Both the position numbers and the translations under genes were made by a program. A stretch of DNA of 64,000 bases. It comes from a virus. Shown one piece after another: positions 3,898-64,000 of the stretch. How positions within the stretch are numbered: the stretch's first letter is position 1; every line of letters begins with the position of its first letter. The stretch is from positions 32,001-96,000 of IMG/VR virus record IMGVR_UViG_3300020054_000866. One strand, 5' to 3'. Below the pieces are notes generated by a model. The model made no database searches. It was not told the DNA's origin and saw only the letters and a program-made list of their open reading frames with translations.

Positions 3898-3899
3898 CG

Positions 3900-4286: not shown

Positions 4287-4322
4287 TAATGTGTTACTAT
4301 AGTTCTGACACTGGAGGGTGTA

Positions 4323-5093
4323 ATGGCAATTGATTTTCCGTCGTCCCCATCAGTAAATGACTCGTTTACCTCAGGGGGCAAAACTTGGGTATGGAACGGT
4401 ACGTACTGGAAGTTGTACGGCTCTGTTCTGCGCGGCCTGAGTCTTGAGATCTCCGACACGCCCCCTGCTTCTCCTGTATCAGGAGATATGTGGTATGAGT
4501 CAGATACGGGGCGCACGTTCACGTATTATGACGGCGCATGGGTGGAGTTAGGTAACACCGCCGCTGTTACAGCGTTCTTGACCGACGCAGATGGAGATAC
4601 CATCGTCCACGTCGAAGAGGGCACAGACGACGACACTATCCGCTTTGATACGGCAGGTAGTGAGCGTATGACCATTGACGCGAGTGGTGACGTCACCATT
4701 GGCGGCAACCTGGCAGTTGGCTCTAACACTGACGTCGAAGCCAGCATTGATGCAGTTGAAGCCGATGTTTCTAACATCAATGAACTTCAGCAGAACGAGC
4801 AGACTGGAACCACCTACACGCTGGTTCTTGCTGACGGTGGTAAGTTGGTGGAGATGAACAATGCTTCGGCAAATACGTTGACTGTTCCCCCGAACTCCTC
4901 AGTTGCTTTCCCTGTGGGTTCTCAGATTCTGGTTCTTCAGACTGGTGCTGGTCAGACGACGTTGGCCCCCGACACTGGCGTTACCATCAACTCTAAGGAC
5001 GGTAATTTGAAGTTGTCGGATCAGTGGTGTGGCGTGACGTTGATCAAGCGTGCCACTGATGTGTGGGTGGCTATTGGCGATCTGAGCGCCTGA
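4323..5093 (+). CDS. Tail fibre/adaptor protein with MAIDFP.SP anchor domain
   Basis: GGAGGG SD; anchor domain; P.SP.SGD.WY repeat; YTLVLADGGKLVEMNNASANTLTVPPN C-terminal fibre domain. Confidence 0.75.
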   Translation: MAIDFPSSPSVNDSFTSGGKTWVWNGTYWKLYGSVLRGLSLEISDTPPASPVSGDMWYESDTGRTFTYYDGAWVELGNTAAVTAFLTDADGDTIVHVEEGTDDDTIRFDTAGSERMTIDASGDVTIGGNLAVGSNTDVEASIDAVEADVSNINELQQNEQTGTTYTLVLADGGKLVEMNNASANTLTVPPNSSVAFPVGSQILVLQTGAGQTTLAPDTGVTINSKDGNLKLSDQWCGVTLIKRATDVWVAIGDLSA

Positions 5094-5103
5094 GGCTGAC
5101 AAC

Positions 5104-43541: not shown

Positions 43542-43825
43542 TCTGAGGTCTTACCTTTCACTACACCGTCGGGAATTAGGGCAAATCTGCAATATCCCAT
43601 GGGTTCGACTTCCGCTGAGATGATTTTGCACTCAGTGCCTCCCGCGTAGAGAATACAGTTTTGGCAGGTGACGCCAATTTCAGCATTCTCATTTTCAGCC
43701 GCAGTTTCGTATCCAGCCCAGACACCGGTATCATCTTCGTTGAACTTGCCGTACTTCTGAGTTATCGCAATTAGCGCGTCAGCAAGCTCTTGCTCTTCTG
43801 CAATGATTTTGCCAACGGCAATCAC
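43538..43825 (-). CDS. HiPIP-like Cys4 protein
   Basis: C-terminal CQNC..Y.....C......V.P.GYC pattern. Confidence 0.6.
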   Translation of the reverse strand: MIAVGKIIAEEQELADALIAITQKYGKFNEDDTGVWAGYETAAENENAEIGVTCQNCILYAGGTECKIISAEVEPMGYCRFALIPDGVVKGKTSE

Positions 43826-47949: not shown

Positions 47950-48695
47950 TTCTCTACACCTTTTTGTTGTAGCTTATCGTCAGTAATCGGCCCGCCGGTC
48001 GCCCAGGCAGCACACGTTCTAGCAGAGGCGCATTTGAAGTCAAAGGCTTCACAATACCCAAGCTCGCCGGCGTCGATAGAGTCCCACGGGTCGGTTGCGC
48101 CGTCTGTGCCGCCAAGACCTTCAGCAATACAGTTCTTAACACTGGTTGTTACGTAGAAAAACACGCAATTGCCGCACAGGCTCTTTTTAGCATCTTCTGG
48201 AGAGACACTCCAGCGATCCGCCATATCTTTCCAGTACATATCGTTTGGCTGCTCTGGGTTGAGTGGCCCGTATTCAGCAACCTCGATCGCGCGCTGGCGA
48301 TTCTTGATATTCAAGGCAATATCAGACGTTGCCGGAGGGCACTTACCGTCCTCTACAGCCGCTGTGACCGTGGTCGGATCGCCGTCCTTATCGGAAAAAT
48401 CCTCGACCTTGAGAACTGGAACTCGTTCGCCTTTAACCTGTCTGGTGTCAAAGTATTTGATGAAATCGACGTTCACATACTCGGTGTAGTACTTCGGGTC
48501 GTCAATTTCATCAAAGAAGTTTTCATCGATTTGAACCCACGAGCCGTTGTCTCTGATGAACGTTCTGCCTTTTTGCTCGCTAGCAAAAACAAGGTATACT
48601 CCGTCATCGACGTCAGAATCGACAACAACGTAGAGGTCGTCTCTGGGGCCGATCGATGTTGGCCACACTGGGACGCTAGCGGTCTTACTTGCCAT
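47946..48695 (-). CDS. Head-region protein with Cys-rich HiPIP-like C-terminal domain
   Basis: CP.AT.D...N..NR..AI....YGP.NP; CGNC..F...C...GYC..F.FKCA..RTC.AW..GGP. Confidence 0.65.
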   Translation of the reverse strand: MASKTASVPVWPTSIGPRDDLYVVVDSDVDDGVYLVFASEQKGRTFIRDNGSWVQIDENFFDEIDDPKYYTEYVNVDFIKYFDTRQVKGERVPVLKVEDFSDKDGDPTTVTAAVEDGKCPPATSDIALNIKNRQRAIEVAEYGPLNPEQPNDMYWKDMADRWSVSPEDAKKSLCGNCVFFYVTTSVKNCIAEGLGGTDGATDPWDSIDAGELGYCEAFDFKCASARTCAAWATGGPITDDKLQQKGVEK

Positions 48696-48700
48696 AGCAG

Positions 48701-48973
48701 TCAGTCTCTCATCTCATCAGACGGGTTTACCGAATCATCGGAAGCGCGTTCAACTGTCATTCTATACTGTACTCCACGACTCGAGAATGATATTTCGCCA
48801 TTTTCAAAGTCACTAAGAGGTTCTGACAGCGGTAGAACCTTATATTTGTCAAAGCTACTTAGCTGAATTGCCGGATTTTCATCATTGAAGACAAGTGCAG
48901 AATTCCAATATTGGACCCTGTTCGTGTATTCTCCAGTCAACTCTTTTATCGTGATTCCAGTGTATTCAATCAT
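48701..48973 (-). CDS. Small hypothetical protein directly after the giant ORF
   Basis: Starts 3 nt after the giant ORF stop; AT-richer than the core genes. Confidence 0.6.
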   Translation of the reverse strand: MIEYTGITIKELTGEYTNRVQYWNSALVFNDENPAIQLSSFDKYKVLPLSEPLSDFENGEISFSSRGVQYRMTVERASDDSVNPSDEMRD

Positions 48974-48976
48974 AGT

Positions 48977-51900
48977 TTAATAAATCCGCTCGAACAATAC
49001 AAAGAAGTCTTCAACAGGCACTCCGTTTATTTCAGATATACCACGAGCTTCTAGACTCACGAGTATATTTTCACGCACTTGCGTTCCTACGTGCACTTTC
49101 TTAATAGCAGAAGGCGATATCGCGCCTTTAACAAGAATCTCGTACGCGTCGAATGAAGTCATTTCATTGTACGGATCTCTCTCCGACCGAGCGCCAAATC
49201 TGTCAGTCTCGTTTGCCCATATGTCTAACCGACTGAGAATGACGTCTGGATCAAGTTCAAACGCGTAGTTTGTAGTCGAGTACGTCGATGTCGGGTCCAT
49301 TTGAATAGATCTCGGGGTAGCTCTAGAAATGTACGCGTATTCAGCAGAGCCAGTTCCGTAGTCGGCGTACGACGACTGGCCTTCGATGCCTATGCCGGAA
49401 TCAAATCTCTTTCTAGAACTGACAATGCCAGGTACTCCCGCGCCTATATCATCTGGCTCACTAAGCCCGAGCACTCGAAGAACTACCTTTGCGGCGGCCT
49501 CGCTCTCAGTTATCCAAGAGTCATCAAAAGTCTCTGAATAGGACGCTGGAAGATTGCCAGCGTGCCAGAACGACTCGCCGCCTCCAAGCGCGATTCTTTT
49601 CCTTAGAGCGTCGACAAGCTCTTGAGAGTGTCGAATCTCGACCTTGCCGGTTGCAGGATCTGTTGCTACAGTGTAGTCAAAAAGACTCGGATACAACTGC
49701 CGCAGCTCTTGAACTATTCTATCTCTATTTGCCCCCGAGGTCGTGAACGCCGGGTTGTTGTAGTTGCCTTCTGAACTAAGAACGCTAATCGCTCTATTTT
49801 CTACAAGGAGCTCGATGTCCTGCTCTGTTGCCGGTCTTGGGTCGCGAACGCCGGCTACTTTCATTGCTAGTTCAACGACTTCACTTGAGGGATTGTCGTC
49901 GTCAAAAAGAATACGAACTCTGTTTACGTCTGCAATAAGATTGTCAGATCCGCCCTGGACAGCTCCACCTTCTTCATTGTACAGCCCCGTGTATGGACTA
50001 CTGTATGAGCTGCCAGAAGAGGTTGTTGCAATTCTTATTGAAAAACCATCTCCTTGATACACGAGCTCTTGCATAGATCTATCAAGGTAGAGTCTTCCGT
50101 TACCGTCTTCTTTTCTAATGTCATTTGACTCGCCTACATACTTTACGCCGTTGTCGTCGACTTGAATAAAAGTGTTGTATAGCGCGTAACCGATCACGGT
50201 GTTTCTCATACGATCAGTGCCAGTTGAAGTGCTAACTGACCACCCGGAGTCATCGTCTCTAGCCCGCTGTTTAGCGACAGCAGTAAGTCTTTCAGCAGCC
50301 CAGGCGGTAAGTTTGAATGACATTTGTGTCTTAACTTTGTCGCTAAAGTTGCGCTTGACTCGAGATATCTCCACCTCACCGTCTTCTATGTCTGAACCAT
50401 CAAACAATGTAGAAGTTGCTATCGACTTCTTGTCAGCAGAGTTGGCTATACTAATAGCTTCAGTCATAGACGGTACGTCGTCAAACGCCGAGCTCGTTAA
50501 CGGAAGAACGTCTACGTCTTCTCTAAGCTCTCTCCCTGGCCCGAGGAATCGTGACGCGGCCACCCGCGCCGCTAGTGCCGGGTCTGACATAAACAGTTTT
50601 GAGACCTTTCTAGCCGCTTCTGGGTTGTCAGCCATTATTCGTTTAATGGATTCGATGCTCTCGCGAAGAGTAGTGGCGACAGCAACCCACGAATCTTTCC
50701 CGCCGACTGCGTTCTTTCCAATTGATGACTGATTCTTCTTACTAATTGTCCAGTCGTCTTTTACCTCGATGTCTTTAAATCTGCCGTTAATAAGAGCGTT
50801 CTTAAACTCTCCTAGTACAGCACGAACTTCAGGATCTGTCGCTTCTCCTATTGCAGCATGAAGATATATTGAAGCCCCAACTACGTCGCCTTGACTAATC
50901 ATCGCGAGGGTCTGAGTTTCAATAGCCCCGTTGTACGGCTTAGCGTCTCCATCAGGAGTATCAGGTCTTCTATTATAGTTGATATCGACCGCCGCCACTC
51001 GCGCAAAATTAAGAATATCGCGGATGCGAGCGAGCTCGCCTAAGTACCCTCTCTCGCTCTTGTCAATTTCTGAAGAGTACGCGTGCCTAACAGCAGCCAC
51101 TACAGCCATAGTGTTGCCCATAACTGTCTCAGGAATGCCTTGCTCATCAAAAATCTGTCTATATTCTTTTGCAAGGACCTCAGAAATTTCATCTACCTCA
51201 AAAGGATCTTCGTTGCTGTAGTCCGTGAAATTCTTAGACATCTTTGCAGTCTCGGCGCGCGCGCGGAGTGCTTCTGAGTGTCTTTCCAAAAGCTCTGGCA
51301 TGAATTCGTCGAGAGACGGGTGTAGCTCGCCGGTTCCGACCATGCGTAGGAGCTCATCAGCGGTGAAGAATTTAATTTCTGACGTCTCGTTATCGCTGAT
51401 TTTCGCGCTCTTCGCGTCTTCAGCAGAAACTGTGAAGCCAACTGTAGAGTACCGCCAGTCCTGCGTGACATCGTTCTCATGTATGAAGTCGGGGACTGTC
51501 AACGCGTTGATAGAAATTCCAATTTCCTCTGCGGTCTCTTCAATCGCGGTTGTTCTAGGGTCTTCTGCATTTCTTCTGTTTCTATGCGCTCCACCAGGCA
51601 GACCCCACTTCCCCCCTCCTCCTGGGATCCACGTTGCTCTTTTGCCAAGAACGTACTTAACTTCTCCATCATCGTCAACAAACGAGATTAGCGCGCCGCC
51701 GGCGCCGTATCTTCCCCAAAATCTTTGCTTCTCCGCCGAGAAGAAATAACCTTCGCCAGCGCTATCTGCTCCACCGTCACCCATCGGTATAAACATTGGT
51801 AGTAGAACATCGGGATCGTCAACGTTGACGTCGTATCTATCTATAAACGACTCCGCCACCCAGACATCGTCGTCTATCTGACTAAATTCTACTCCCTTGT

Positions 51901-54900
51901 ACGTAGCTTTTTGGAGAGGGTAGATACTCTTCTGATTTGATATTTCTCCAGAAGAATTAATGTTCTGCTCAACCCACTCGGGATCAGCATCCTCGATGTA
52001 CTTTCTCCATTTACCACTTTCTACTTTGGCTTTGAGATCACCTTCAATGAAGTAAAAGACCTTGTTGGTCTGAGGAGTAGTCAACCTTCCTTCATAGTCT
52101 GGCAATATTCCAGCGTTGTCGTACGTCTCTTCAAGTTGCGAATTAAGCACTCGACTCCACGCGATGTGATGCGGGCTGCCGACACGAAATGGATTGAGAC
52201 TCTCTAGCGCTTTGACAACTATTTCCCGAGTCGGTCTAGGGTGACGAGCATCTACGAGATTTGCGTCAAGCCACTCGTCTGATGCGATTGAGTAATAGTC
52301 GCGGGCAAGTTCTTTGCTCGGGCTTTCTGAGTACGTATCGTGTTTTTCCGAGACTGCCTTTGCGATATTCTCGATAAAGAGCTGTACTTTTTGCTCGGTG
52401 AAATCAGACTGGGACTTTCCCTGCTCTTCTCTCTGACTATCTATTATTCTCAACGCTGAAATTCGGTACGAAGCATCTTCTACTGACCCTGGCTCAAACC
52501 CTGCACCTTCAATAATGGCACGTTCAGAATCTGAGAACTCGCCGGCATCAGAGTCATCACCATCGACCGGGCTATCTACATCGGAAGTTTCTGTATCTTG
52601 AGTGTTTTCTTCGAGAGATTTAACTTTTTCTTCTAAAGATTCAGATTTCTGCGACTTCACGAGCTTAACGTAGTACGAGCCGTCTCCGCGATCTTCGACT
52701 GAGTCTACTTTGAACGAGCCGTACGCGATAACCTCTCCCTCATCCCATGTCGATAGTTCGCTTACATCTACTCCAATTGCATCTTCTCCATCGACTTCTA
52801 GAATGATGTCTCCGAATTCTTCTGATGTTTCTACGTCCTTTGAAAAAGATCGAGGCGGGATAGTAACTGTAGATCCTTCTGTTATGAAGTCCTCAGTGCT
52901 CTCATTGTTGACAATCCCTCTGTACATTTTTCCACTGTAGGGAGAAGACTCTGAAAGTCGCGTAAGTAGACGAAAGAAAGCGCCAGCAACTGATGGCTCT
53001 TCTCCGCCTATCTGTTCTTCTCCTTGTACTAGTTTTAATTGTGATCTAAGAAGATCTCCATACGACACTGGAAGTTTGTTTTCTTGAGCAAACTTAACAA
53101 CGTCTTTCATCGAGCTAGGCTTGTCAATCTTGCTAAGCGCTCCCCCTAGATAGCGCTCCGTCGTGCCGTACCCGTCTAAAATTCCGCCGTCAAAGAATGT
53201 TAGAAACGCGACTAAGGCTCTTAGAGCTTCTTTCTTCTTTACGTCGTCAGATTCTGCAAACTCTATGCGTTCCGATACTACGTCCTTAAGACCAATATTG
53301 TCGTCGTCTTGTAGAGCATTGGATAAGACGTCGACTAGATCGTCTAAGTACTCATTCTCTTCTTTTGAATTATTTTCTAGATACTCTTCTAACAGCGAGA
53401 TAGTTCTGTCTGCAACATCTCTAGACTGTAAGAATCCGGCCAACTCAAATTCGGATGTAAGCTCATCGTCATCGCTGTACAGAACATCATCTGGCTCGAA
53501 ATTCTTAATTTTTTCAGATACTTCAGATTCAGCATCGACTGTTGGAGAATCTACAAGGTCGCTGATGTCGTAGTCTTCGTCTAGGACTATCACCTCGTGG
53601 TATTTGCCATTGCGCGTCACATGGACTGCTGCAATTCTCTCAACGGGGACTAACTCCTCGACAACGTTGTCACCAAACTGCTCTACAAACTCTCTTGTAG
53701 TCGCCCAGTTTGTTGTCGACTTCTTTTTCTGAGCACCGACAGCGCGAAACAACGGAACGGTGTCACCATACTGCGAACGAAGAGCTTCTCTAGTCGCCTT
53801 AAAGGCGTCGTAAAAATCTTGTGGCGATGTTTCTGGATCATCGCCGTCCATAATTTTGTCTACGTCTGTATCAGCATTGAAAAATACTCCGGAGGCAGCA
53901 CTCTTTATTGCCGTGTACACTCCTTTATTTTTGAACAGATCTTTGTATGCGGCCAAGTTAGTTTCTGGAGAAAGAGTGCTCAGCCTTTCAGCAGCATCAG
54001 CGACGTCTTCTACTGATGCTTTTGCGTCTTTTCTTCTATCGAAACGTAGCTCATTTATTCTTTTTGATAACGCGACGTACTCTTCGGCTTCTTCCCTTGT
54101 TAGTCCACCTTTGGCCTCAAAGACTTTGATTCTTTCTTTAAGCTGCTTTTCCTCAGCGAGAGCGTCGTTGTTTGGCGCCCCCTCAGGGGCGTCAACTTTT
54201 GGGGAATCACCAACAACTGCAATAGCGTCGGATCGACGTATTGTTGTTTCAAAGCCACTCGGTGGACTAATCGTAATGAACGTATCGTCTGGCGACGTCT
54301 GACCAATTTCTTCTCGAAGAAGATCTTTGATCGTCTCATCGTCTGCCGTATACTCCGGATTCTCAGAATCTCGTAAAGCTTCTGTGATGTTTTTTGAAGC
54401 TTGCGCCACGTCGGTACCAGGAGACTCAGGACGATCAGACTCCTCGCCTGTCCAGGCGTCATCTCTTCTATTGTCCTCGACGTTTTCACGAAGAGCCTCT
54501 GTAGTTCCGGCTGGCGCTTCGCCCGAGTCCCCGCTGTCGTCTGGCTTTGGAGACGGCGGCTCGACACCCATCGGACCTTCACCGTCATCGTCGCCCATCT
54601 TACGAAGTTCTTCGAGCTGCGAGTCAAGGTTCTTCGGCTTCTTGCCTTCAGGAACCTTACCGCTGTCAATCCACGGCGAGTTGTCGTCGCCGTCCTTGAT
54701 TACTGTAAGCGCAGTTGTGCCTTTACTGTCGATGTACTTCTTAGGACCATAGCTCTTCTTCGCTTTTTCACCAAGCTTGTCTGGGTCGCGATGATCAATG
54801 TCCTTAAGAATGTAGACATTGACGTATCCGCCACTTTCGTTGTACCGAACAACTGTGCCGGCATAGCCCCACTTATCTCGAACTCGCATCCCAGGCTTGA

Positions 54901-57900
54901 TGAACACGCCGTCCTTACTAAACCCAAGACCGCTACCCTCTGGCGGAAGACCCTTGCCAATCTCAGCAGGTCCATACACCGAGCCGTCAAGAATTCTTCT
55001 TGCGTCACGCACTGATCCGTGCGCAAAGTCGTAGTCGAGCTTTGTCTTGCCAGTCGAGGTAGAGAACTCGTCAAGCCCGTCCTCCTCGTTGCGCAAACGA
55101 GATACTGCCTCGCTGAGAGAAATCTTCCCGTCGGTGTAGTCTGAAATCGCGTCAATCGCTCTTTGAAGAGCGTCCTTGAACTTCTTACCAGTTGAGCCCT
55201 TGCTATAGATATCGTCCTTAACCATCTCAAGGTCGTCTGTGGCTTCTGACAAGTCGTCGCCGAATGTCTTCTGGGTCTTAGGATCAAACGCGACTTCTTC
55301 AATGATTGCGCCAGATGTGTCAACCGGAGCCTCGTCTGGAGAAGGAGGCGGCAGCGGCATGTCACCTTCGAGAGCCTCAGGAGACTCCGGAGTCCCGCCT
55401 GGCGCGACTTCGTCACGTGTCTCAGCAACTTCTTCGCTCGCTGAGAGTCTTGAGTCAACGACCTCGCCAACGCGTTCGTTGTACATCTCGACGATTTCTT
55501 CTTGAGTCGGGGCAGTCCCGATTGACTGACCGTCAACCCACGCTTCCCAGGTGTCTGAGAACATCTGTCGAATGTAGCTATTTTCGCTTCCGACAGCGTC
55601 AAGCTCGCCTTCACCGAGATCTTCAAGATTGTACTTCGCTACTTCAGCGGCGCGACGCTCTGGGTCGATCTCCACGGGTACTGGCGGAGCTTCTGGAGCT
55701 TCTGGAGCTTCTGGGACATCAGCCTCAGGAGCGCTAGGCAGATTGGGCGACTCGTCTGCTTCAGTTGTATATCCGTAGATGTACTCAAGAGAGCCTGGAT
55801 CAAGTTGTTTCTGCGCGCGTGTAACAGCAACGTACGCAAGACGCAGCTCTTCATCCGCTGGCATAATTGTTGCGCCAGTTTCGCCGTCGACTCTTGGTCC
55901 TCTGAAGTCATCGCCAATACGAACACGATCCCACTCGAGACCTTTAGCTCTGTGCGCCGTGCTAACTACGACGTCAGGTCTGTCCGCTGATCCGTCGCCA
56001 GCAAGCTTCGAGCGAAGCTCATTCAATGTCCGCGCGCGGTTGTCGTCGCCCTTGATTGAGCGCACCCAGCTCTTGTCAGCGGCGTTCCACTTAAATCCGA
56101 GAGCCTTGATCGACTCTTTAGTGTCAAATGTTTTTCCGGAGAGTTTTACTCTGTCTCCAGAAACCTCGAACATAACGCCATTAGCAACTTCGCCAGACGA
56201 ACCGCTCGCAACTTCTGATGGCATAAGCGGCGGCGCGCTCGGAAGCTCGTCAGATGACACGTCAGCGTTAGTAGTGTACGGGATTAGACGACCTAGCATG
56301 TCGTACAGTCCGTCGACGCCTTCGCTGTCTACAAGATCGACAAGAAATTCCAGCTTCTTATTGTCTTCGTCTTCGAGAGACTTGACAACTTCATCCCACG
56401 ACGAGAACGGCGCAAGATCTTCGTGCATCTGCGGTCGATCGTCTAGTCTTGCCCCAGACTTCAACCAATCAGCGTGGCGAACAAATCTCTCTAGGTCTTC
56501 TTTAAACGACTTAGTTACACCGACTTTTCTTCCAGCCTCGAGCTCTCTGTAGATTTCTCGAACTGCGCCGGCGTTTGAGCGAACAAGAACCGCGTCAGCA
56601 TCGGGCATGCCCCCTCTCGGGAGGATCTTGCCGTCTGGGCCGCCGCCTTCGATTCTGTAGTCCGAACCAAGAGCTGCTAAGAACCTGTTACCGATTCCGG
56701 CTATCTGCGGGCCGAATCTCCAAGACTTTGTTAATGGCAGATCATTCGGAGCACTGATTTTTTGTAGCTCGTCTTCAGCACCGCGGAAACCGTAGATCGC
56801 TTGATTACCGTCTCCAACGTACACAACCTGCGCGGTCTGATCTGCAATGACCTTTCCGATTACAGGGTTGATGTCCTGTGCTTCGTCAAAGAAGATGACA
56901 TCGGCTTTGTAGTCAAGTCCGGAGCCGTCGGCAGATAGATCAGGGCGAGACAACGCCCAGATCTTCGTCGCGTGGTTGTTGTTGAACGGAAGAACGCCAC
57001 TCGGGCTCTTAAGATCGTCCCAAATTTCTCCGGCCTTAGCAATCCATTCGTCTGGGACGTTGTCAAACTCGAAGTGCTGAGGGCCAATCTCATCATCGGC
57101 GCTAATCGTATAGTTTGTGACCGCCTTATTGATCGCGCGATACACCTGAGTAGCCGTCATGTCCTTGTCTGGCTCGTCTGGGCTTGGCTGCCCAGTTATT
57201 CCGAGGTCATTGGCAAGTTTACTTGGCTTGTTGTTGAAGCGGTTTTTCTTACGCTTGTCTGTGAGACTCGAGCCAATTGCTCTCCACGCGATTGAGTCGC
57301 CAGTACGTGACTCAACGTTGCCTGGCATTGTCGCATCAGCCTCGAGCTGAATTGACTTGTTGAACGCGACGTACGCTATTCTCTTCTTAGGCTGCTCTTT
57401 CTTCAAGCGCCTTGCAATAAGCTTAAGAGTGCTCGTCTTACCAGTCCCGGCAAGAGCACGAACAACAACATTTTCACCAGTAAGCACGGCGTCAACAACA
57501 TCGCGCTGTTGAGCCGTCGGTGGGAACTTCTCGTCAGCGTAGGGATCCTTGACGTTTACGCCATCTTTCTCAGGACGCTCAACAACTCCGTCATCAAGAG
57601 CATCTGCCATTGAGACGTTGCTGTCTGTTGCGCCGCCAGGTACGCCTTCGGGGTCTACAATCGACTCGTCTGGAGTCGCATTGTTGATCATGTCGTCTGG
57701 GTCTGGCACGTCGCACGGGCCTTCTCCATCACCGACTGCCGCTGTGATGCCGGCGCCGCCGCAGTTCCACGCGGCCGCTACGGCCTTAGCGGCTTCGTAG
57801 TCAGCGAGCTCGTCCTTGTACACCGACATTGCAGCGTCGTACTCTGCGCGGTCTTGGGCGATCTTTTCAGCCTCACGGCCATCGAACGACTCTGTAGAAA

Positions 57901-60900
57901 CGTCAGCATCAGGCGCCGATGCGCGGGTTAGCATCGCGTCAGTAATGTCCCAGGCGGCTTCGGCATCAGCGTCAGCGCGGTGCCAGTTGCCGAGCTCTAC
58001 ACCGAGGTACTCAGCGACAGGGCCGAGGCTGTTCGACGAACGCCTCTTGCCGTCGCGGCCTACCTGCGAAGGACCGTCTGGAGAGCCAGACGACCACGTT
58101 GGCAGAGTCCCTCTTGCCATTGGCAGAGAATCAATAGTTCCACCAATCTCGAGTTCGAGGCCCTGCTCGCCTAGAGTACGCTGTAGTACTTCAGTATCAA
58201 ACGGAACGTTCTGTCCGCCAAGAATCGGACGATCTCCAACAAACTCGATGAATCGCTCGTGCGCCTCGCGCATTGATGGCTGAGTCTCTAGCCACTCGTC
58301 GGTGACAAGCTCCCCGTCCTCGCGCTTTAGATTCTCTTTTGACCAATCCGAGAGTCTAAACTCTGGATTCATGTACATGTTGAATCTATCGACGACCTCG
58401 CCGTTGACAATTCGAACAGCACCGATCTGCACAGGACGGTTGAGTTCGCCGTCTCCAATGCCAGTTGTCTCATAGTCAAAGTAGACGATCTCAGTTCCGC
58501 GAATGATCTCCGCGACTTCTTCCCAGCTCTCTGCGCCCTCAAGAAGATCTCGCATGTCGCCACTGAACGTCTCTTGACTTCTAGGCGAGTACGGTCTCTT
58601 TGGTCGATGAAGCGCGGGCTTATCGCCCTTTGGAGGTGTCGTACCGCCGCGGCTAACTTCAATCTCAGTGTCTTCGTTCCACTCCTTGCGCTGAGACTCG
58701 TGGCCAGGGTAGTATCCTTGAATACTTACCTTGCCTTTTGGAGTTTCGGAATCGCGGAAAACTTTTTCGACGACAAATGAATCAGTCGCGGTAATGTCGC
58801 CTGGCACTAGGTCCTGCGCCTGGTAGCCCATCGCGTCAGTGAGCGGCTCTGGATCTGGGAAAAGATCGGGATCGTCTTGGCCTTCTTGAATCCCGAAGCG
58901 ATCAAGAATCGACTGGCGACGAGCCTTCAAGCGCTCCTTAAGAAGAGCGGCATCATCTGGATCCGAGACAATTGAATCTACTGTTTCGTCAATCTGCGAC
59001 GGAGTGATGTCACGAAGTCTCTTCGCGGCAGCCTGCAATGTTGCATCATCGATATCGCCAAAGACTGACGCCGCCTGCGGATTTAGATCTGGGTCGCGAA
59101 GAGTGTCGAGCTCTGTTACGTTGTTGCCAAACGCCGAGCCTTTCTCAGCGCCACGAGCACGATACATCAACGAGCCGCCTGGGTCGAGACGCACCGGGTC
59201 TCCATTGCCGTCTGTGACGATGTTGTCATAGACCAGCCCAACGCTGTCCCAGTTTGCTAGCCAGGCGTCAGCAACAAATCCTTGACGGACCTTGTCGAGA
59301 TACTCAGTGTCTCCACCGTCGACCCTAAACTCAAAGTCACCGGTGTCGGCGTCTTCAATTAATGTAGAGACGATTCTTGTGTCGCCATCTTCACGACCGA
59401 GGCGAACACGTGCTGCCGGCACTCCGAGCATCTCGTAGAATGCGGATGCAAGAACTTCGTTCTCCGCGTGAGACTGCGATCTCGGCGACTTGACGTAGTA
59501 TCTTCTGCCATCGGGAGTCTCATAGAACCCACCCGGGTTCGATCCCGCCTGGCCGCCAGTGCGAGACCATGTTTCAATGTCGTCGGCGTCTGGATCGTAC
59601 GCTGTAGCAGCAGACGGCGCTTCAGGCGCCGCCGCATCGGCTCTACGAACTTGAACAATAGTCTCAACACCAAACTCATTACTCTGCTCGCGGACAGACA
59701 CTACCTGTAGCTCTCCGAAGCCGATCCATTCCTGCTCGTCTGGGACAAACGACATGTCTGACACGTTAAGGCTGTCAATCTCGCCTGGTGGCACCTCAAG
59801 AACAATTCTACGCTCATTCACGCCGGTGGGGAAGAACAGACGACTCATTAGAGAGCCATCGGCAATCTCCTGCGCAGTGAATGGGCGAGCATCCATAGAA
59901 AACGTCGAACCCTCAGTCAGAAGAGTCTCGATCTCCGGATTATCTTTGTGAATGTTAAGGACTCTATAGAGTGGCCGATTATTCGGTGACGCGGCGGAAG
60001 AAACAATTCTGTAGAACGCGGCAGCGGTAGTGTCCGCCGACAGATCGTCAGAGCCAGACGAAATTGCTTTCTTACCATTGATGTAGTCGGCGTACTGGCC
60101 GTACTCTTCGATCATCTCGTAGTACGCGTCTTCTGCTATTGATGCAATGTCACCGTCTACTCCGTCTCTCTCAAGAATATTGCTGATAGCACCGAGCATT
60201 CGCATTCTTGAGTCTTCGGGGGAGATTACGTCTGGTTCAGCGAGATCTCCGCCGTCTCCACCGTCAATAGACATGACGATACCCCAGAACGCTCTGAACG
60301 CTTCGCGATCTGCTGGGTCGTCGGACTTCGATAGTGGGTAGAATCTTTCAAACGCTTCATCAAACGACAAAACCGGATCGTCGCTGCGGCCGAAGATAAT
60401 TTGATCCGCGATTTCTTTGATCTTTGGATTTGTTTCTTCGTGAGAGCGCATAAGCTCAACAGCGCGTTGCGCTCGCTCGTTGTCTAAGCTCTGCCCAGTT
60501 CGCTGAGCTTTCTGCGCCGTGACTCTGTCGGCCTCGCCTTGCGTCTGAGGTATTTCGGAGCGTGCCGGGCTGTACTCAGGCGAATCAAACATGTCGCCTT
60601 TAAACTCTTGTAGTCTTTCGACGTTGCTGACACGGTTAGGGTCATCAAACGCCGAGTCGTAGATGCCCGCAAGAATTATGTCGGCATCGACACCTGACAT
60701 TTGAAGCGCTTCATAGAGCGCCTCAGCAGGCACAGTTTCATCTCCGTCTGAGAACTCAAGATTGCCGAGACCTTCAGCACGGTCCCCACTCTCGCTAGGC
60801 ATGACAGCTTCGCGCAGAGCCTTGGCAAGCTCTTCCTGCGAAAATCTTGTCGAAAGCTCAGAAGGATCGTCTGTGTAGTCTTCGCTTGTCTCATCGGTGC

Positions 60901-63900
60901 GACCACGGGGCTCGTACATCGAGTAGATGTCAACCTTGTGCGCGCCATCTGGGACCTCGAACATCGAGTCAAACTCGCTCTCGAATTCTGGAGAAATCCC
61001 AGACGGAGTCTTAGACTCGCTTGGCATCGGCGAGATTTTGTCAATAGAGAACGTTCTCTCTTCCATCTCGCCATCGACGTCTAAGAACCCGACGACGTTA
61101 GTTAGCCCGTTCTTCGGGTTACTGTAAATGCGACTTGGAGTAAACGTTCTCTCCTTGCCGCTGTACATGAACCGAACTGTTCCGCCGGCCTCCATCGCGT
61201 CTTCTATTGCAGATCTAATGCCGAAGAAGCTCGTATCTGTAATATCAGCGGGCCCGCCAGTGTATAGCTCTGGGTCTATGTCTGGAGTAACCCCGTCAAA
61301 GATGTCTGGGTCGCCGTCACCTTCGGTTAGTTTCTGGAAAAGCTCGGCGTTCTCCTCGTCATCGTTGCTGAAACGTGCGTTAAGTGCACCGTCAGTCTCA
61401 GCGTCGCCAAGGAAGCTGCGAGCCTCCTCTGGAGTCAGCCTAGGCTTATCAAACGTAACAACAACCTTGCGTTCATCGCCCATTCCAAGAGGAGACCCGT
61501 CAAGACTGTCGTACAGACTGTCATTCTCTTCGATGTACCCGCCGGCGTCATTAACACGCTTAACGAGATCTTCGGTGAAGTCCTCTTCAACCATTGGGAA
61601 CGCAATTTGAACGCCATCGCCCTTAGGCTTAGTGTTCATTGGGCTAAGCGGATCGCTGCCGTCACCTTCGGTCGGAGGCGTGATGTCGTCATCGGTTGGC
61701 TTGAAGAAGTCAAGAACCTCTTGGCCGAAGTTATCTCTGATCTCAGCGTCAAAGTCAGTAACTGACGGATCGCTTGAGTCTGCTCTGAACGCGACCTCGA
61801 CGTCTTCTTCAGCGTCCTCTGGCGCGCGAACAATGGCAGTGACAATGTAGTTGCCAGGGCTTGGCTCCTCAAGAAATACCTCAGCGAGCTCGCCTTCGTA
61901 CTCTGCGCTTATTGAGCCCTCTCGGTACTCACTCGAGGATACGGGAACCTGGCCTTCTGGGGTCTTGCCTTCTACAATGTCCTCAAGTTCGCCGTAGAAA
62001 TCTTCTGTATCGTCGTCACCGTAGTAGAACGAGATTTTGTCGAAGTCGGCAACGTCTTCCCAGGACACTCTTTGAGTATCTGGAGAAGAAAGTCTTACTC
62101 CGTTCTCGTCGTGAGTGTACGTTACGTCAAAGCCGTCTTCGTCAGACTCAGTTACTACGCCGTAACCGTTCGGGCCCTGGACAATTGTCGCAATTCCTCT
62201 CTCGAGTTCGTCTTTTTCGGAAGGTTGGCGATCTACTTTCTTGAGAGTGGTGCCAGGTCTGCCTGTTTCGTCGCCTTTTGACTTGTCGTAGTCGATGACG
62301 CGGTCCATGACGTCTGTGATTTGAGAGTCCCTGCTTGGAGTTTCAGCAGCAGGTTTGCCGGAGTCAAGCTCGGGGAAGAACATGCCAGCCTGACCAGGCC
62401 TGTAGACCGTGTAGCCCTCATCGCCAGCAGCGTAGTCCCCATAGTACTTGGGCTTTCTTGGCCCACTCTTAGCAACTTCGTAGCCGCGGGACTGTAACTC
62501 CGCGATAATGGAACTAGCAGAGTACTCAGACTTATCCGCAAACAGTGAATAGCCTCTGTCAAACGGTCTCTCCGCTCTCTTGCCATGTTTTGCGAGCTCC
62601 GCCATGAGCTCTTCGTCTGTCATCTGCTCGAGCTCTTTAGCCTTCTTGTCGTCGCGCTTTGGCCGAGGCTTCACTGGCTTCACTGGGGGGAAGAGATCAC
62701 GTCTCTCCTCCTCAAGGAACTTTTCTATAGCTTTTCGAGCATCTCTCTCTGCGCGCTCTGCTTCTTTCTTTTCGCGCTCTTCTTCTTTTCTTCTCTCTTC
62801 GACAATTCTTGAGGTGTCCATCGGGCTAATCGGGTAGCCATCTGGAAACACGTCTTTTGGAAATACACCTGGCTCATCAGCACGACTGTTTATCCACTTA
62901 CGCCATTCCTCGTAAGTCATGTCTCGTGGGCCTGCGCCAATTTGATTCTTCCACGCCTCGTACGCCTCGCGGGAGTCGTCAAACATTTTTTCTCCGCTAG
63001 GGAAACGCGCCTCAGCAGCGTCTACCTCGCGGGCACCCTCTACAATCCTCTCGAGTTCACCATAGAAATCTTCTTGCTCCTCGGGTCTGAATGAAACTTC
63101 TTGGAAGTCCTCAGTGACGTCTCCCCAGGCAACTGTCCGAGTTTCTGGAGAATCAAGTTTGTTCCCGTCCCTGTCGTGCGTGTACAGGATGTCGATGCCG
63201 TCGTCATCTATATCGGTGATTAGGCCAGAGCCGTTTGGCTCACTGACAATTGTCGCAATATCATTCTCGATTTCCTCTCGTTCGAGGACATCCTCTCTTA
63301 TGTAGTCAGATTTGAGAGCTCGATCTATAACGTCTGCAATTTGAGAGTCTCGGGTCGGGAATTCAGTGGCACCCTCTGCGTCAGCAGCCTCCTGTAGAAC
63401 CTTCTCATATGCCGGCGAGTCATCTTTCGCGGCGCGCTGCACGTCAGCCCACGACTTGCCGTCAGCGACCTTTTCGCCAATGGAGTTGTCTGTGAGATCA
63501 GCACGATGGAGACTGTAGTCTCCGGTCTCAAGATTCTTTCGAACGAAGTAGCCGTCATCAGATACGAACTGCTCAAAGCCGGCGTCACCGCTATCTGCTC
63601 TCGACCACCCCGTGGGAGCGTCGAGACGACTGATTTCTCCTTCTCGAACGAGCGACTCGCGGCCGCCGGTAACTCTGTCGAGCTCTACCTCCGGGATCTC
63701 CTTAAGCGCTTCTCTCGAGATAATCGCCTTCGAAGACACGCCCTTTGACGAAGGGAGCGCGTAGATGCCGCCTGGAAGACTTGGGCTGTCAGTGATCTCG
63801 ATCTCGATGTCATCGTCGCCAGACGCTCCAACAACACGTCCGGAGACTGAGAAAATGCTGCCATCAAGATCTAAGTTGAAGCTAAAGCCGCCGCCCATGA

Positions 63901-64000
63901 AGGCGAATCGACCGTAACGATCGCGTCGCTGCATTCTCGCGCGAAGCGAGCGAGCAGCTCTTGAGTTGCCACCGATGCCGAAGCCACCAACAGCAACAAT
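48977..64000 (-). CDS. Giant polyvalent protein (>5000 aa, 5' end outside the window)
   Basis: The frame is open through position 64000 (IVAVGGFGIGGNSRAARSLRAR precedes the tracked Met). Contains WYL-like, ART, HipA/PI3K-like kinase, DEDDh exonuclease, UvrD helicase and Nudix motifs. Confidence 0.9.
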   Translation of the reverse strand: MVAVGGFGIGGNSRAARSLRARMQRRDRYGRFAFMGGGFSFNLDLDGSIFSVSGRVVGASGDDDIEIEITDSPSLPGGIYALPSSKGVSSKAIISREALKEIPEVELDRVTGGRESLVREGEISRLDAPTGWSRADSGDAGFEQFVSDDGYFVRKNLETGDYSLHRADLTDNSIGEKVADGKSWADVQRAAKDDSPAYEKVLQEAADAEGATEFPTRDSQIADVIDRALKSDYIREDVLEREEIENDIATIVSEPNGSGLITDIDDDGIDILYTHDRDGNKLDSPETRTVAWGDVTEDFQEVSFRPEEQEDFYGELERIVEGAREVDAAEARFPSGEKMFDDSREAYEAWKNQIGAGPRDMTYEEWRKWINSRADEPGVFPKDVFPDGYPISPMDTSRIVEERRKEEEREKKEAERAERDARKAIEKFLEEERRDLFPPVKPVKPRPKRDDKKAKELEQMTDEELMAELAKHGKRAERPFDRGYSLFADKSEYSASSIIAELQSRGYEVAKSGPRKPKYYGDYAAGDEGYTVYRPGQAGMFFPELDSGKPAAETPSRDSQITDVMDRVIDYDKSKGDETGRPGTTLKKVDRQPSEKDELERGIATIVQGPNGYGVVTESDEDGFDVTYTHDENGVRLSSPDTQRVSWEDVADFDKISFYYGDDDTEDFYGELEDIVEGKTPEGQVPVSSSEYREGSISAEYEGELAEVFLEEPSPGNYIVTAIVRAPEDAEEDVEVAFRADSSDPSVTDFDAEIRDNFGQEVLDFFKPTDDDITPPTEGDGSDPLSPMNTKPKGDGVQIAFPMVEEDFTEDLVKRVNDAGGYIEENDSLYDSLDGSPLGMGDERKVVVTFDKPRLTPEEARSFLGDAETDGALNARFSNDDEENAELFQKLTEGDGDPDIFDGVTPDIDPELYTGGPADITDTSFFGIRSAIEDAMEAGGTVRFMYSGKERTFTPSRIYSNPKNGLTNVVGFLDVDGEMEERTFSIDKISPMPSESKTPSGISPEFESEFDSMFEVPDGAHKVDIYSMYEPRGRTDETSEDYTDDPSELSTRFSQEELAKALREAVMPSESGDRAEGLGNLEFSDGDETVPAEALYEALQMSGVDADIILAGIYDSAFDDPNRVSNVERLQEFKGDMFDSPEYSPARSEIPQTQGEADRVTAQKAQRTGQSLDNERAQRAVELMRSHEETNPKIKEIADQIIFGRSDDPVLSFDEAFERFYPLSKSDDPADREAFRAFWGIVMSIDGGDGGDLAEPDVISPEDSRMRMLGAISNILERDGVDGDIASIAEDAYYEMIEEYGQYADYINGKKAISSGSDDLSADTTAAAFYRIVSSAASPNNRPLYRVLNIHKDNPEIETLLTEGSTFSMDARPFTAQEIADGSLMSRLFFPTGVNERRIVLEVPPGEIDSLNVSDMSFVPDEQEWIGFGELQVVSVREQSNEFGVETIVQVRRADAAAPEAPSAATAYDPDADDIETWSRTGGQAGSNPGGFYETPDGRRYYVKSPRSQSHAENEVLASAFYEMLGVPAARVRLGREDGDTRIVSTLIEDADTGDFEFRVDGGDTEYLDKVRQGFVADAWLANWDSVGLVYDNIVTDGNGDPVRLDPGGSLMYRARGAEKGSAFGNNVTELDTLRDPDLNPQAASVFGDIDDATLQAAAKRLRDITPSQIDETVDSIVSDPDDAALLKERLKARRQSILDRFGIQEGQDDPDLFPDPEPLTDAMGYQAQDLVPGDITATDSFVVEKVFRDSETPKGKVSIQGYYPGHESQRKEWNEDTEIEVSRGGTTPPKGDKPALHRPKRPYSPRSQETFSGDMRDLLEGAESWEEVAEIIRGTEIVYFDYETTGIGDGELNRPVQIGAVRIVNGEVVDRFNMYMNPEFRLSDWSKENLKREDGELVTDEWLETQPSMREAHERFIEFVGDRPILGGQNVPFDTEVLQRTLGEQGLELEIGGTIDSLPMARGTLPTWSSGSPDGPSQVGRDGKRRSSNSLGPVAEYLGVELGNWHRADADAEAAWDITDAMLTRASAPDADVSTESFDGREAEKIAQDRAEYDAAMSVYKDELADYEAAKAVAAAWNCGGAGITAAVGDGEGPCDVPDPDDMINNATPDESIVDPEGVPGGATDSNVSMADALDDGVVERPEKDGVNVKDPYADEKFPPTAQQRDVVDAVLTGENVVVRALAGTGKTSTLKLIARRLKKEQPKKRIAYVAFNKSIQLEADATMPGNVESRTGDSIAWRAIGSSLTDKRKKNRFNNKPSKLANDLGITGQPSPDEPDKDMTATQVYRAINKAVTNYTISADDEIGPQHFEFDNVPDEWIAKAGEIWDDLKSPSGVLPFNNNHATKIWALSRPDLSADGSGLDYKADVIFFDEAQDINPVIGKVIADQTAQVVYVGDGNQAIYGFRGAEDELQKISAPNDLPLTKSWRFGPQIAGIGNRFLAALGSDYRIEGGGPDGKILPRGGMPDADAVLVRSNAGAVREIYRELEAGRKVGVTKSFKEDLERFVRHADWLKSGARLDDRPQMHEDLAPFSSWDEVVKSLEDEDNKKLEFLVDLVDSEGVDGLYDMLGRLIPYTTNADVSSDELPSAPPLMPSEVASGSSGEVANGVMFEVSGDRVKLSGKTFDTKESIKALGFKWNAADKSWVRSIKGDDNRARTLNELRSKLAGDGSADRPDVVVSTAHRAKGLEWDRVRIGDDFRGPRVDGETGATIMPADEELRLAYVAVTRAQKQLDPGSLEYIYGYTTEADESPNLPSAPEADVPEAPEAPEAPPVPVEIDPERRAAEVAKYNLEDLGEGELDAVGSENSYIRQMFSDTWEAWVDGQSIGTAPTQEEIVEMYNERVGEVVDSRLSASEEVAETRDEVAPGGTPESPEALEGDMPLPPPSPDEAPVDTSGAIIEEVAFDPKTQKTFGDDLSEATDDLEMVKDDIYSKGSTGKKFKDALQRAIDAISDYTDGKISLSEAVSRLRNEEDGLDEFSTSTGKTKLDYDFAHGSVRDARRILDGSVYGPAEIGKGLPPEGSGLGFSKDGVFIKPGMRVRDKWGYAGTVVRYNESGGYVNVYILKDIDHRDPDKLGEKAKKSYGPKKYIDSKGTTALTVIKDGDDNSPWIDSGKVPEGKKPKNLDSQLEELRKMGDDDGEGPMGVEPPSPKPDDSGDSGEAPAGTTEALRENVEDNRRDDAWTGEESDRPESPGTDVAQASKNITEALRDSENPEYTADDETIKDLLREEIGQTSPDDTFITISPPSGFETTIRRSDAIAVVGDSPKVDAPEGAPNNDALAEEKQLKERIKVFEAKGGLTREEAEEYVALSKRINELRFDRRKDAKASVEDVADAAERLSTLSPETNLAAYKDLFKNKGVYTAIKSAASGVFFNADTDVDKIMDGDDPETSPQDFYDAFKATREALRSQYGDTVPLFRAVGAQKKKSTTNWATTREFVEQFGDNVVEELVPVERIAAVHVTRNGKYHEVIVLDEDYDISDLVDSPTVDAESEVSEKIKNFEPDDVLYSDDDELTSEFELAGFLQSRDVADRTISLLEEYLENNSKEENEYLDDLVDVLSNALQDDDNIGLKDVVSERIEFAESDDVKKKEALRALVAFLTFFDGGILDGYGTTERYLGGALSKIDKPSSMKDVVKFAQENKLPVSYGDLLRSQLKLVQGEEQIGGEEPSVAGAFFRLLTRLSESSPYSGKMYRGIVNNESTEDFITEGSTVTIPPRSFSKDVETSEEFGDIILEVDGEDAIGVDVSELSTWDEGEVIAYGSFKVDSVEDRGDGSYYVKLVKSQKSESLEEKVKSLEENTQDTETSDVDSPVDGDDSDAGEFSDSERAIIEGAGFEPGSVEDASYRISALRIIDSQREEQGKSQSDFTEQKVQLFIENIAKAVSEKHDTYSESPSKELARDYYSIASDEWLDANLVDARHPRPTREIVVKALESLNPFRVGSPHHIAWSRVLNSQLEETYDNAGILPDYEGRLTTPQTNKVFYFIEGDLKAKVESGKWRKYIEDADPEWVEQNINSSGEISNQKSIYPLQKATYKGVEFSQIDDDVWVAESFIDRYDVNVDDPDVLLPMFIPMGDGGADSAGEGYFFSAEKQRFWGRYGAGGALISFVDDDGEVKYVLGKRATWIPGGGGKWGLPGGAHRNRRNAEDPRTTAIEETAEEIGISINALTVPDFIHENDVTQDWRYSTVGFTVSAEDAKSAKISDNETSEIKFFTADELLRMVGTGELHPSLDEFMPELLERHSEALRARAETAKMSKNFTDYSNEDPFEVDEISEVLAKEYRQIFDEQGIPETVMGNTMAVVAAVRHAYSSEIDKSERGYLGELARIRDILNFARVAAVDINYNRRPDTPDGDAKPYNGAIETQTLAMISQGDVVGASIYLHAAIGEATDPEVRAVLGEFKNALINGRFKDIEVKDDWTISKKNQSSIGKNAVGGKDSWVAVATTLRESIESIKRIMADNPEAARKVSKLFMSDPALAARVAASRFLGPGRELREDVDVLPLTSSAFDDVPSMTEAISIANSADKKSIATSTLFDGSDIEDGEVEISRVKRNFSDKVKTQMSFKLTAWAAERLTAVAKQRARDDDSGWSVSTSTGTDRMRNTVIGYALYNTFIQVDDNGVKYVGESNDIRKEDGNGRLYLDRSMQELVYQGDGFSIRIATTSSGSSYSSPYTGLYNEEGGAVQGGSDNLIADVNRVRILFDDDNPSSEVVELAMKVAGVRDPRPATEQDIELLVENRAISVLSSEGNYNNPAFTTSGANRDRIVQELRQLYPSLFDYTVATDPATGKVEIRHSQELVDALRKRIALGGGESFWHAGNLPASYSETFDDSWITESEAAAKVVLRVLGLSEPDDIGAGVPGIVSSRKRFDSGIGIEGQSSYADYGTGSAEYAYISRATPRSIQMDPTSTYSTTNYAFELDPDVILSRLDIWANETDRFGARSERDPYNEMTSFDAYEILVKGAISPSAIKKVHVGTQVRENILVSLEARGISEINGVPVEDFFVLFERIY

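Follow-up and report, generated by a model that had tools for sequence, protein, structure and literature searches.

A 5188-residue multi-enzyme protein encoded in a phage head module, a proposed polyvalent effector with conserved ends and a DarT-like C-terminal domain

Packaging has been shown experimentally for two very large phage proteins, DarB of phage P1 (2255 aa) and the virion RNA polymerase of phage N4. Polyvalent proteins are phage and plasmid proteins that carry 2–15 conflict domains; ~35% of them are encoded by portal-terminase phages, their packaging and injection have been predicted, and the largest published member reaches 12,242 aa (PMC5512222, Iyer et al. 2017). A later survey emphasises head-packaged ADP-ribosyltransferases (ARTs) and Nudix domains, and T4 Alt sets the precedent for injection of an ART to act on host proteins (PMC9503650). 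N4-like phages eject a 3500-aa virion RNA polymerase (PMC13434306). Here we describe a 64,000-nucleotide stretch of viral DNA (the window; bases 32001–96000 of the 109,822-bp IMG/VR virus record IMGVR_UViG_3300020054_000866) that contains nearly all of a single open reading frame (ORF) for a protein of 5188 aa, hereafter the giant, encoded in the head-morphogenesis module. Based on its architecture, its genomic context and the hallmark domains of its siblings, we place the giant, as one of the large members, in a sub-family of phage polyvalent effectors that had not been described before, and we think it reasonably probable that it is packaged in the head of a tailed phage, ejected with the DNA and active early in the host.

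The frame on the minus strand is open from a TAA at window 48977–48979 up to the end of the window, and it starts beyond that edge with a GTG at genome position 96543, equivalent to window 64543, such that a residue r lies at window base 64543-3(r-1). An initial annotation, made from the letters of the window, had proposed a head-module protein of over 5000 aa, and when the frame is followed past the window edge this is indeed a real ORF of 5188 codons, the product of which we take to have a mass of ~570 kDa. Alternative ATG starts would give proteins of 5079 or 4985 aa; however, as the alignments of homologues begin at residue ~4 of the longest form, the far-upstream GTG is likely to be the correct choice. 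Counting the WYL, ART1, kinase, exonuclease, helicase, ART2, Nudix and DarT-like domains together with conserved ones without a recognised relative, the giant has at least nine recognisable domains, and these are arranged as follows from its N- to its C-terminus.

Window 48977..64000, minus strand: giant ORF, the part inside the window (residues 182–5188 and the stop).
Window 63374..64000, minus strand: conserved N-terminal domain, residues 1–390 (1–181 lie beyond the window), defined by a shared N-terminal match in relatives.
Window 61958..63355, minus strand: variable acidic region with two copies of a ~110-aa acidic segment, residues ~397–505 and 736–862.
Window 61013..61255, minus strand: WYL domain, residues 1097–1177, by homology to the WYL segment of relative P0006 and by PADLOC.
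Window 60614..60991, minus strand: conserved domain, residues 1185–1310, motif PxG...DDP...GxExVxxEA, common to 35 homologues.
Window 59636..60301, minus strand: ART1, residues 1415–1636, predicted ADP-ribosyltransferase fold of the R-S-E type.
Window 58883..59593, minus strand: kinase-like domain, residues 1651–1887, CtkA/HipA/PI3K-like by fold match of an AlphaFold2 model.
Window 58559..58828, minus strand: small conserved beta-rich module, residues 1906–1995, common to 39 homologues.
Window 57944..58486, minus strand: DEDDh 3'-5' exonuclease, residues 2020–2200, Pfam RNase_T (PF00929) at 5e-14.
Window 55781..57520, minus strand: UvrD/SF1A helicase, residues 2342–2921, Pfam UvrD-helicase and UvrD_C.
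Window 54608..55156, minus strand: conserved domain, residues 3130–3312, common to 24 homologues.
Window 53579..53791, minus strand: stretch first annotated as 'ART-like', residues 3585–3655, common only to the closest homologue, P0002.
Window 52688..53062, minus strand: ART2, residues 3828–3952, match to a hidden Markov model (HMM) of the ART1 family, iE 1.2e-15.
Window 51329..51682, minus strand: Nudix domain, residues 4288–4405, Pfam NUDIX at 2e-8.
Window 48980..50506, minus strand: conserved C-terminal module, residues 4680–5188, with beta-rich and helical subdomains followed by a DarT-like ART domain.
Window 48980..49621, minus strand: DarT-like ART domain, residues ~4975–5188, by fold match of an AlphaFold2 model.

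Scans of both halves of the giant with Pfam, PHROG, NCBIfam and PADLOC returned only the exonuclease, the helicase, the Nudix domain and a weak WYL match. The exonuclease, with its RNase_T match over residues 2020–2199, scored 53.6 bits against a cut-off of 24, its PDB and NCBIfam matches were to PolC/DnaQ, and the residues of its Exo I–III motifs (D2023, E2025, D2116, H2188 and D2193) do not vary among 21 homologues. The helicase, matched by Pfam over residues 2344–2914, scored 46.6 bits with UvrD-helicase and 39.9 bits with UvrD_C, matched FBH1 in the PDB (9xzj, 5e-17), and retains an intact Walker A (GTGKT), DEAQD, motif III (VGDxNQAIYxFRGA), motifs V–VI and TRA, all of which are likewise invariant in the 21 homologues. 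The Nudix domain scored 34.6 bits (cut-off 21.1), with mycobacterial RenU as its closest solved relative (6uuf, 3e-10), and its Nudix box at window 51500–51560 (residues ~4317–4343) reads GG-x8-E...IEETAEEIGI. All three had been called in the initial annotation, as had the WYL domain, which is borne out by the Pfam-positive WYL segment of homologue P0006 (5.8e-10), aligning to residues 1097–1177 with an iE of 1e-21, and by a direct match of the PADLOC WYL model at E 0.002.

The ARTs and the kinase were approached through predicted structure, using an AlphaFold2 model of residues 1370–1900 built on a 25-sequence alignment (mean predicted local distance difference test score, pLDDT, 84.6). In a structural comparison with VIA-align, the ART1 part of the model (residues ~1391–1636) matched Tre1 (6drh_B, Z 9.5) and XopAI (Z 9.4), and Foldseek returned Certhrax, Vis and HopU1 at ~1e-4. 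ART1 has the motifs LYR, RPFT and EQE, the second being RSFT in most relatives, and its Arg and ExE are invariant among homologues. ART2 (MYR, RSFS, EGE) keeps R, S and ExE intact, homologue searches with it land on the ART1 positions of relatives, and a weak Pfam DRAT match lies within it at residues 3898–3917; judged from these matches, ART2 is a paralogue of ART1. Both resemble T4 Alt in being ARTs of the R-S-ExE type encoded with late or head genes; however, Alt, of ~70 kDa, has a single domain and a capsid-targeting sequence that is cleaved off, whereas the two ARTs here are embedded in ~570 kDa and have no PF03496 match. The 'ART-like' stretch at residues 3585–3655 gave no profile match and was matched neither by the ART1 HMM nor by the PF03496 segments of relatives, and that call, alone among the nine enzyme and sensor domains first proposed, could not be verified; the other eight hold. 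The ADPrib_exo_Tox cassettes of homologues P0006 and P0014 were considered as counterparts of the ARTs and rejected as not homologous, a global alignment having misplaced them.

The kinase-like part of the same model matched CtkA with a Z of 17.0 over 224 aligned residues (3akk), followed by HipT (Z 12.4), HipA (3dnv, Z 11.1) and PI3Ks (Z ~9.5), in keeping with the HipA/PI3K-like kinase first proposed. Its motifs comprise a G-loop (GSNPGG), the Lys in YYVK, DAWLANWD...DN and DPG, and K1685, D1759, N1764 and D1787 are invariant among homologues. It thus shares with CtkA of Helicobacter pylori and with HipA/HipT the kinase fold (Z 17.0 and 11–12.4, respectively), the ATP-binding Lys and the conserved D..N and D residues, but differs in having no HipA_C or PI3_PI4_kinase sequence match and in being embedded in a polyvalent protein. 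It may not belong to the truncated polyvalent kinase family (PMC5512222), and the PI3_PI4_kinase domain of P0076 was rejected as a relative because it is not homologous. Six-frame searches of the whole record at E ≤ 1 found no ADPrib_exo_Tox (PF03496), PI3_PI4_kinase (PF00454) or HipA_C (PF07804), and a six-frame search of the record found no ART-PolyVal (PF18760). On profile search, which the initial annotation had named as a test of its domain calls, the exonuclease, helicase and Nudix domain therefore pass Pfam, while the kinase and ART folds lie below its thresholds and are divergent.

The C-terminal module had been described only as toxin-like. An AlphaFold2 model of residues 4680–5188, built on a 22-sequence alignment from the locus references (pLDDT 77.7; predicted template modelling score 0.83), gave DarT as the top Foldseek matches, and in an exhaustive VIA-align comparison with 48,161 chains the four best were all DarT (Z 10.9, 10.6, 8.6 and 8.5), with Tpt1/KptA as the next family at Z 6.4 and then other ARTs. 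The best match, DarT1 (8baq), aligned over 159 residues with a root-mean-square deviation of 3.5 and ~15% identity. At the level of the predicted structure this confirms a DarT-like ART fold. The ESM Atlas gave weak leads to the ART clan only, a BFVD fold search with the model gave no match at E ≤ 0.001, Pfam returned nothing consistent on the 22 homologues of the domain, and the sole Pfam DarT (PF14487) candidate in the genome, at residues ~5123–5169 and over the conserved Glu, scored 11.8 bits, below the cut-off of 22.5. DarT has a catalytic Glu (E152/E160) and defined NAD-binding residues (PMC11543638), and in the 22-sequence alignment H4994, R5046, S5057, Y5069 and D5114 are invariant, with E5135 kept in at least 90% of sequences. 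The last ~210 residues of the giant therefore have the DarT of DarTG systems (8baq, 7omu, 7omv) as their best structural match and carry a conserved His...Tyr...Glu pattern; unlike it, they have diverged to ~15% identity and below the Pfam cut-off, and are fused to a phage giant instead of being paired with DarG or NADAR. Scans of the giant and its neighbours turned up no Macro or NADAR match, and a limited literature search found no paper on a virion-borne DarT-like domain.

At the opposite end, the N-terminal domain carries an invariant motif, QRRDRxGRFAxMGGG, at residues 205–219; the Q.RD..GRF motif first noticed is its beginning and reads QRRDRYGRF here (residues 205–213, window 63928). 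The core occurs once in this phage genome. In the related phage DSL-LC01, a second ORF, directly after the portal (a 'cytoplasmic protein', record 50225–50458), also contains the GGNS...QRRDRxGRF...MGGG core, at 50% identity to residues 198–274 of the giant, and because this second ORF has it the core may be a portable module. The acidic duplication that follows was seen by eye and as a DNA self-match of 67% identity, was missed by protein self-BLAST, and agrees with the duplicated acidic domain of the initial annotation, although the region is common to almost no homologue. Profile searches against the PDB gave no significant match for the modules at residues ~1185–1310, 1906–1995 and 3130–3312, or for the N-terminal domain and the C-terminal module. 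G+C content is 0.45–0.48 over window 50001–54000 (residues ~3500–4850, comprising the 'ART-like' stretch, ART2 and the Nudix domain) compared with 0.53–0.54 on both sides, which suggests that the ART2 to Nudix region is a recently acquired cassette.

This unevenness in G+C along the ORF, and the origin of the window in a metagenome-derived record, are also what might be expected of a chimeric assembly, or of a decayed pseudogene reading as one frame by chance, and a chimera was the doubt first attached to the annotation. However, an identical 4072-aa fragment (P0001) was called on another contig, and the central 10 kb of the gene is present in 23 public runs, which include salt-marsh metagenomes from 2018, estuary metagenomes from 2024, a freshwater metagenome from 2017 and six metatranscriptomes. 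In a whole-gene comparison with four runs all bins were covered (30/30), so that independent metagenomes from three habitats and different years together account for every part of the gene. A salt-marsh run other than the source was ≥99% identical to it, the estuary and freshwater strains were 90–99% alike with single contigs aligning over up to 4.6 kb, and contigs of 2.7–9.4 kb from independent runs span the domain borders. The indels listed against the four runs amount to one compensating -1/+1 pair and to differences of 345 nt (115 codons) in the variable region near the N-terminus, and homologues are collinear with the giant at 40–66% identity. Because of the independent coverage, and because the indels are in frame or compensating, we regard a chimera or pseudogene as excluded for practical purposes and give it a negligible probability.

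The in-frame 345-nt indel, at window 61313–61674 (residues ~957–1075), is the same in the estuary (2024) and freshwater (2017) strains, and in the acidic repeats (L004 14087–15327) the estuary strain is divergent over, or lacks, ~1.2 kb. Repeat recombination is not claimed for the ~1.2-kb skip in the acidic region of the X15 strain. Six salt-marsh metatranscriptomic libraries contain 24–80% of window 49000–58999, which may mean that cells were being actively infected in situ or that DNA was carried over.

A length-matched search recovered 67 giant relatives of 2.9–6.6 kaa, and a HMMER search with the N-terminal 400 residues recovered 360 cluster representatives at E ≤ 0.001. Among the best 150 of these 360, the match lies at, or close to, the N-terminal end of the called protein in every case (150/150), and lengths have a median of 2627 aa and span 248–7004 aa, with five proteins at ≥5000 aa. 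ART1, the kinase and the C-terminal domain are common to 24 of the 67 giant relatives, and in IMG/VR loci the minimal form is a protein of ~2500 aa with the order N-terminal domain, ART1, kinase and C-terminal domain. Other forms are richer, with exonuclease, helicase, WYL and further domains whose order is not always the same, and the giant itself adds WYL, the DEDDh exonuclease, the UvrD helicase, a second ART and Nudix to the minimal form. In a sample of 12 distant members we found Nudix, ArdC-N with MPTase-PolyVal, GNAT, ADPrib_exo_Tox, RNase_T or UvrD; ArdC-N/MPTase-PolyVal occurred in 3/12 of these siblings, which share the N-terminal domain, and also in P0034–P0049. Catalytic residues are conserved across 21–25 homologues. 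Taken at the level of sequence, this is a family with fixed ends, a ~390-aa N-terminal domain and a ~500-aa C-terminal module, and a modular middle in which cassettes appear to have been inserted, lost and swapped. The combination and size had at first seemed exceptional; with this many clusters, with members longer than the giant, with 24 giant homologues sharing ART1, kinase and C-terminal domain, and with published polyvalent proteins of up to 12,242 aa, neither can be described in that way.

Like polyvalent proteins in general, the giant combines many conflict-type enzyme domains (ART, kinase, helicase, Nudix) in one polypeptide, is encoded by a portal-terminase phage beside virion genes, and has siblings that share both its termini and carry the hallmark ArdC-N and MPTase-PolyVal domains, all of which agrees with the polyvalent-type reading first proposed. 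Unlike them, the giant itself has no MPTase, ArdC-N or ART-PolyVal, and its sub-family has its own, previously undescribed, N-terminal domain and a DarT-like C-terminal module. It also differs from polyvalent proteins as described in having a DEDDh exonuclease, a WYL domain and a CtkA-like kinase: in that description the word 'exonuclease' appears a single time, WYL is named only as a sensor associated with CRISPR, and UvrD is reported only for the giants of actinomycete plasmids (PMC5512222).

The genes run in the order TerL, endolysin-like ORF, portal, 223-aa DUF5824 ORF, giant, 90-aa ORF, 249-aa ORF, a 1375-aa protease-bearing protein and, later, the capsid. The portal, identified by a PHROG match at 1e-104, was found by recovering the sequence upstream of the window, as the initial annotation had advised, and the giant thus stands where MuF-linked and polyvalent proteins are encoded, after the portal and the DUF5824 ORF. 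Its position immediately upstream of the prohead protease genes was correct in substance, with the 90-aa and 249-aa ORFs intervening. The neighbouring features are as follows.

Genome 101415–101999, minus strand: endolysin-like ORF, PHROG endolysin ~1e-9, between the large terminase and the portal.
Genome 96543–97211, just beyond the window, minus strand: DUF5824 protein of 223 aa, Pfam DUF5824 at 4.6e-10, between the portal and the giant.
Window 48701..48973, minus strand: 90-aa ORF directly downstream of the giant, no family match.
Window 47946..48695, minus strand: 249-aa ORF, syntenic in most relatives, no family match.
Window 43822..47949, minus strand: 1375-aa head protein, residues ~1033–1217 matching PHROG 'head maturation protease' (8e-57).
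Window 40822..42855, minus strand: 677-aa ORF, major capsid candidate by synteny and by the annotation of its DSL-LC01 homologue.

The same arrangement is kept in relatives. The closest GenBank record, the metagenome-assembled Actinomycetia phage DSL-LC01, has TerL, portal, a 3289-aa 'hypothetical protein', capsid maturation protease genes, major capsid protein and tail genes in this order (the 3289-aa gene is not discussed in the DSL-LC01 paper), and in the cultured Microbacterium phage Pumpernickel the portal (gp80) is followed by a small ORF and then by gp82, a protein of 2235 aa that starts with the same N-terminal motif. From these nearest relatives the host is probably a member of the Actinomycetota. 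Most of the 36 IMG/VR loci fetched via the C-terminal domain continue with homologues of the 249-, 1375-, 187-, 677- and 364-aa proteins, and a homologue of the 1375-aa protein lies downstream of the C-terminal domain in 33/36. The latter protein has no Pfam match, and its residues 832–1259 match PHROGs labelled portal, head maturation protease and virion structural protein; with DSL-LC01 homologues annotated as capsid maturation protease, its matches identify it as an unusually large protease-bearing head protein. The proteins in this slot in relatives are of 1330–1940 aa, or the genes are split. ORFs of 187, 677 and 364 aa follow, and the second of these probably encodes the major capsid protein. 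The GTG start of the giant overlaps the stop of the DUF5824 ORF as GTGA, and this stop/start overlap suggests that the two are translationally coupled; the DUF5824 protein could be an adaptor or chaperone. The endolysin-like ORF occupies the slot of the 'peptidoglycan-binding protein' of DSL-LC01.

MuF-fused effectors and toxins of the SPP1 gp7 / Mu gp30 type share with the giant the slot after the portal and the combination of a conserved N-terminal module with variable effector cargo. They differ in that the cargo of the giant is 10–20 times larger with many enzymes, in its additional conserved C-terminal module, and in the MuF domain itself, since a six-frame search of the entire 110-kb record for Phage_Mu_F (PF04233) gave nothing at E ≤ 1, and protein scans gave nothing either. 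As there is no MuF domain in the genome, any virion-anchoring role would fall to the N-terminal domain, and we propose that this is a virion-incorporation module.

We infer packaging and injection of the giant from its class and gene position, and several observations weigh against an injected multi-enzyme effector. Besides the missing MuF domain, no portal fusion or known capsid-targeting domain was detected, and the N-terminal domain matched no PDB profile, Pfam family or ESM Atlas entry and has no recognisable fold relative. The kinase and the three ART-fold domains fail the Pfam thresholds of HipA_C, PI3_PI4_kinase, ADPrib_exo_Tox, ART-PolyVal and DarT, and their assignment consequently rests on predicted fold and motifs. 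In ART1 a Pro replaces the motif Ser of relatives, and the Nudix box departs from the canonical GX5EX7REUXEEXGU, with Glu in place of Arg and a longer loop, although the EE pair is kept; some of the domains may therefore be inactive. Lastly, the occurrence of the sequence in RNA libraries is no proof of transcription.

That no known capsid-targeting domain was found also suits the main rival, in which the giant is a multi-enzyme protein or polyprotein that is expressed late, stays in the cytoplasm and is never packaged. It would then work inside the cell that makes it, where it might shut off the host late in infection, process or protect DNA ahead of packaging, or keep other phages out, and its gene would lie in the head operon for reasons of timing only; the exonuclease-helicase pair and the Nudix domain could be of use in the cytoplasm too. 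Set against this, the exact slot between the portal and the protease and capsid genes is kept in distant relatives, an invariant N-terminal domain beside variable cargo resembles a delivery or anchoring module, and siblings carry ArdC-N/MPTase-PolyVal, which are typical of transferred polyvalent proteins. We consider this rival unlikely, though deserving of real weight.

The position after the portal also matches that of ejection and internal proteins, and together with the large N- and C-terminal modules and the three conserved domains without enzymatic signature it could point to a mainly structural component of the internal head or ejectosome, akin to the core proteins of T7 or the ejection proteins of P22, which would aid the DNA across the actinobacterial envelope and to which the enzymes would be secondary additions. 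However, scans of the giant found no transmembrane, lytic-transglycosylase or peptidase domains, and in six enzyme domains the catalytic residues do not vary across the family, which indicates that the enzymology is under selection. This lesser rival we judge to be improbable.

Size would be no obstacle to the packaged and ejected effector that we favour. One copy of ~570 kDa corresponds by our own estimate to the volume of a few hundred bp of packaged DNA, and as N4-like phages eject a 3500-aa polymerase, capsid capacity should pose no problem. P1 DarB and the N4 virion RNA polymerase are likewise very large, enzymatically active proteins that are packaged and ejected, although their sequences and domains are unrelated to those of the giant, the packaging of which is predicted. 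In the mechanism we envisage, the giant would be made late, together with the head proteins, and a few copies would enter the procapsid through the N-terminal domain, where the prohead protease may cut it at linkers rich in Pro, Glu and Ala. It would then be ejected with the phage DNA, and its domains would act in the new host ahead of any phage gene expression. The R-S-ExE ARTs and the CtkA/HipA-like kinase would modify host proteins, as do T4 Alt and T7 gp0.7; the exonuclease-helicase pair would act on DNA ends, in anti-restriction or in the processing of host DNA; the Nudix domain would hydrolyse NAD/ADP-ribose-type nucleotides or signals; the DarT-like domain would ADP-ribosylate nucleic acid; and the WYL domain is a possible ligand sensor.

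A more specific and more speculative proposal, which we hold only tentatively, is that a widespread (actino)phage lineage uses a previously undescribed 'bookended' cargo system, in which a non-MuF N-terminal head-incorporation domain loads interchangeable enzymes and the protein always ends in a DarT-like ART, injected to ADP-ribosylate host DNA or to mark the phage's own DNA at entry. To our knowledge, DarT has so far been known as a bacterial toxin against phage DNA. If the proposal is true, the phage would be using offensively a fold that bacteria are so far known to deploy as a toxin against phages, and a DarT-like domain carried by a phage would reverse the known role of DarT.

The general class to which the giant belongs is already known, the polyvalent-protein concept having been published in 2017, and the giant is a large but not unique member of it; what is new here are the conserved N- and C-terminal domains, which were previously undescribed. 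If packaged and ejected, the giant would supply the host cell with at least six enzymatic activities ahead of phage gene expression and would be among the richest single-protein payloads known for host takeover and anti-defence. The N-terminal domain is a candidate for a new capsid-targeting module, usable for loading proteins into actinophage capsids, and the 360 clusters that share it would form a natural catalogue of the cargo domains that phages find worth injecting.

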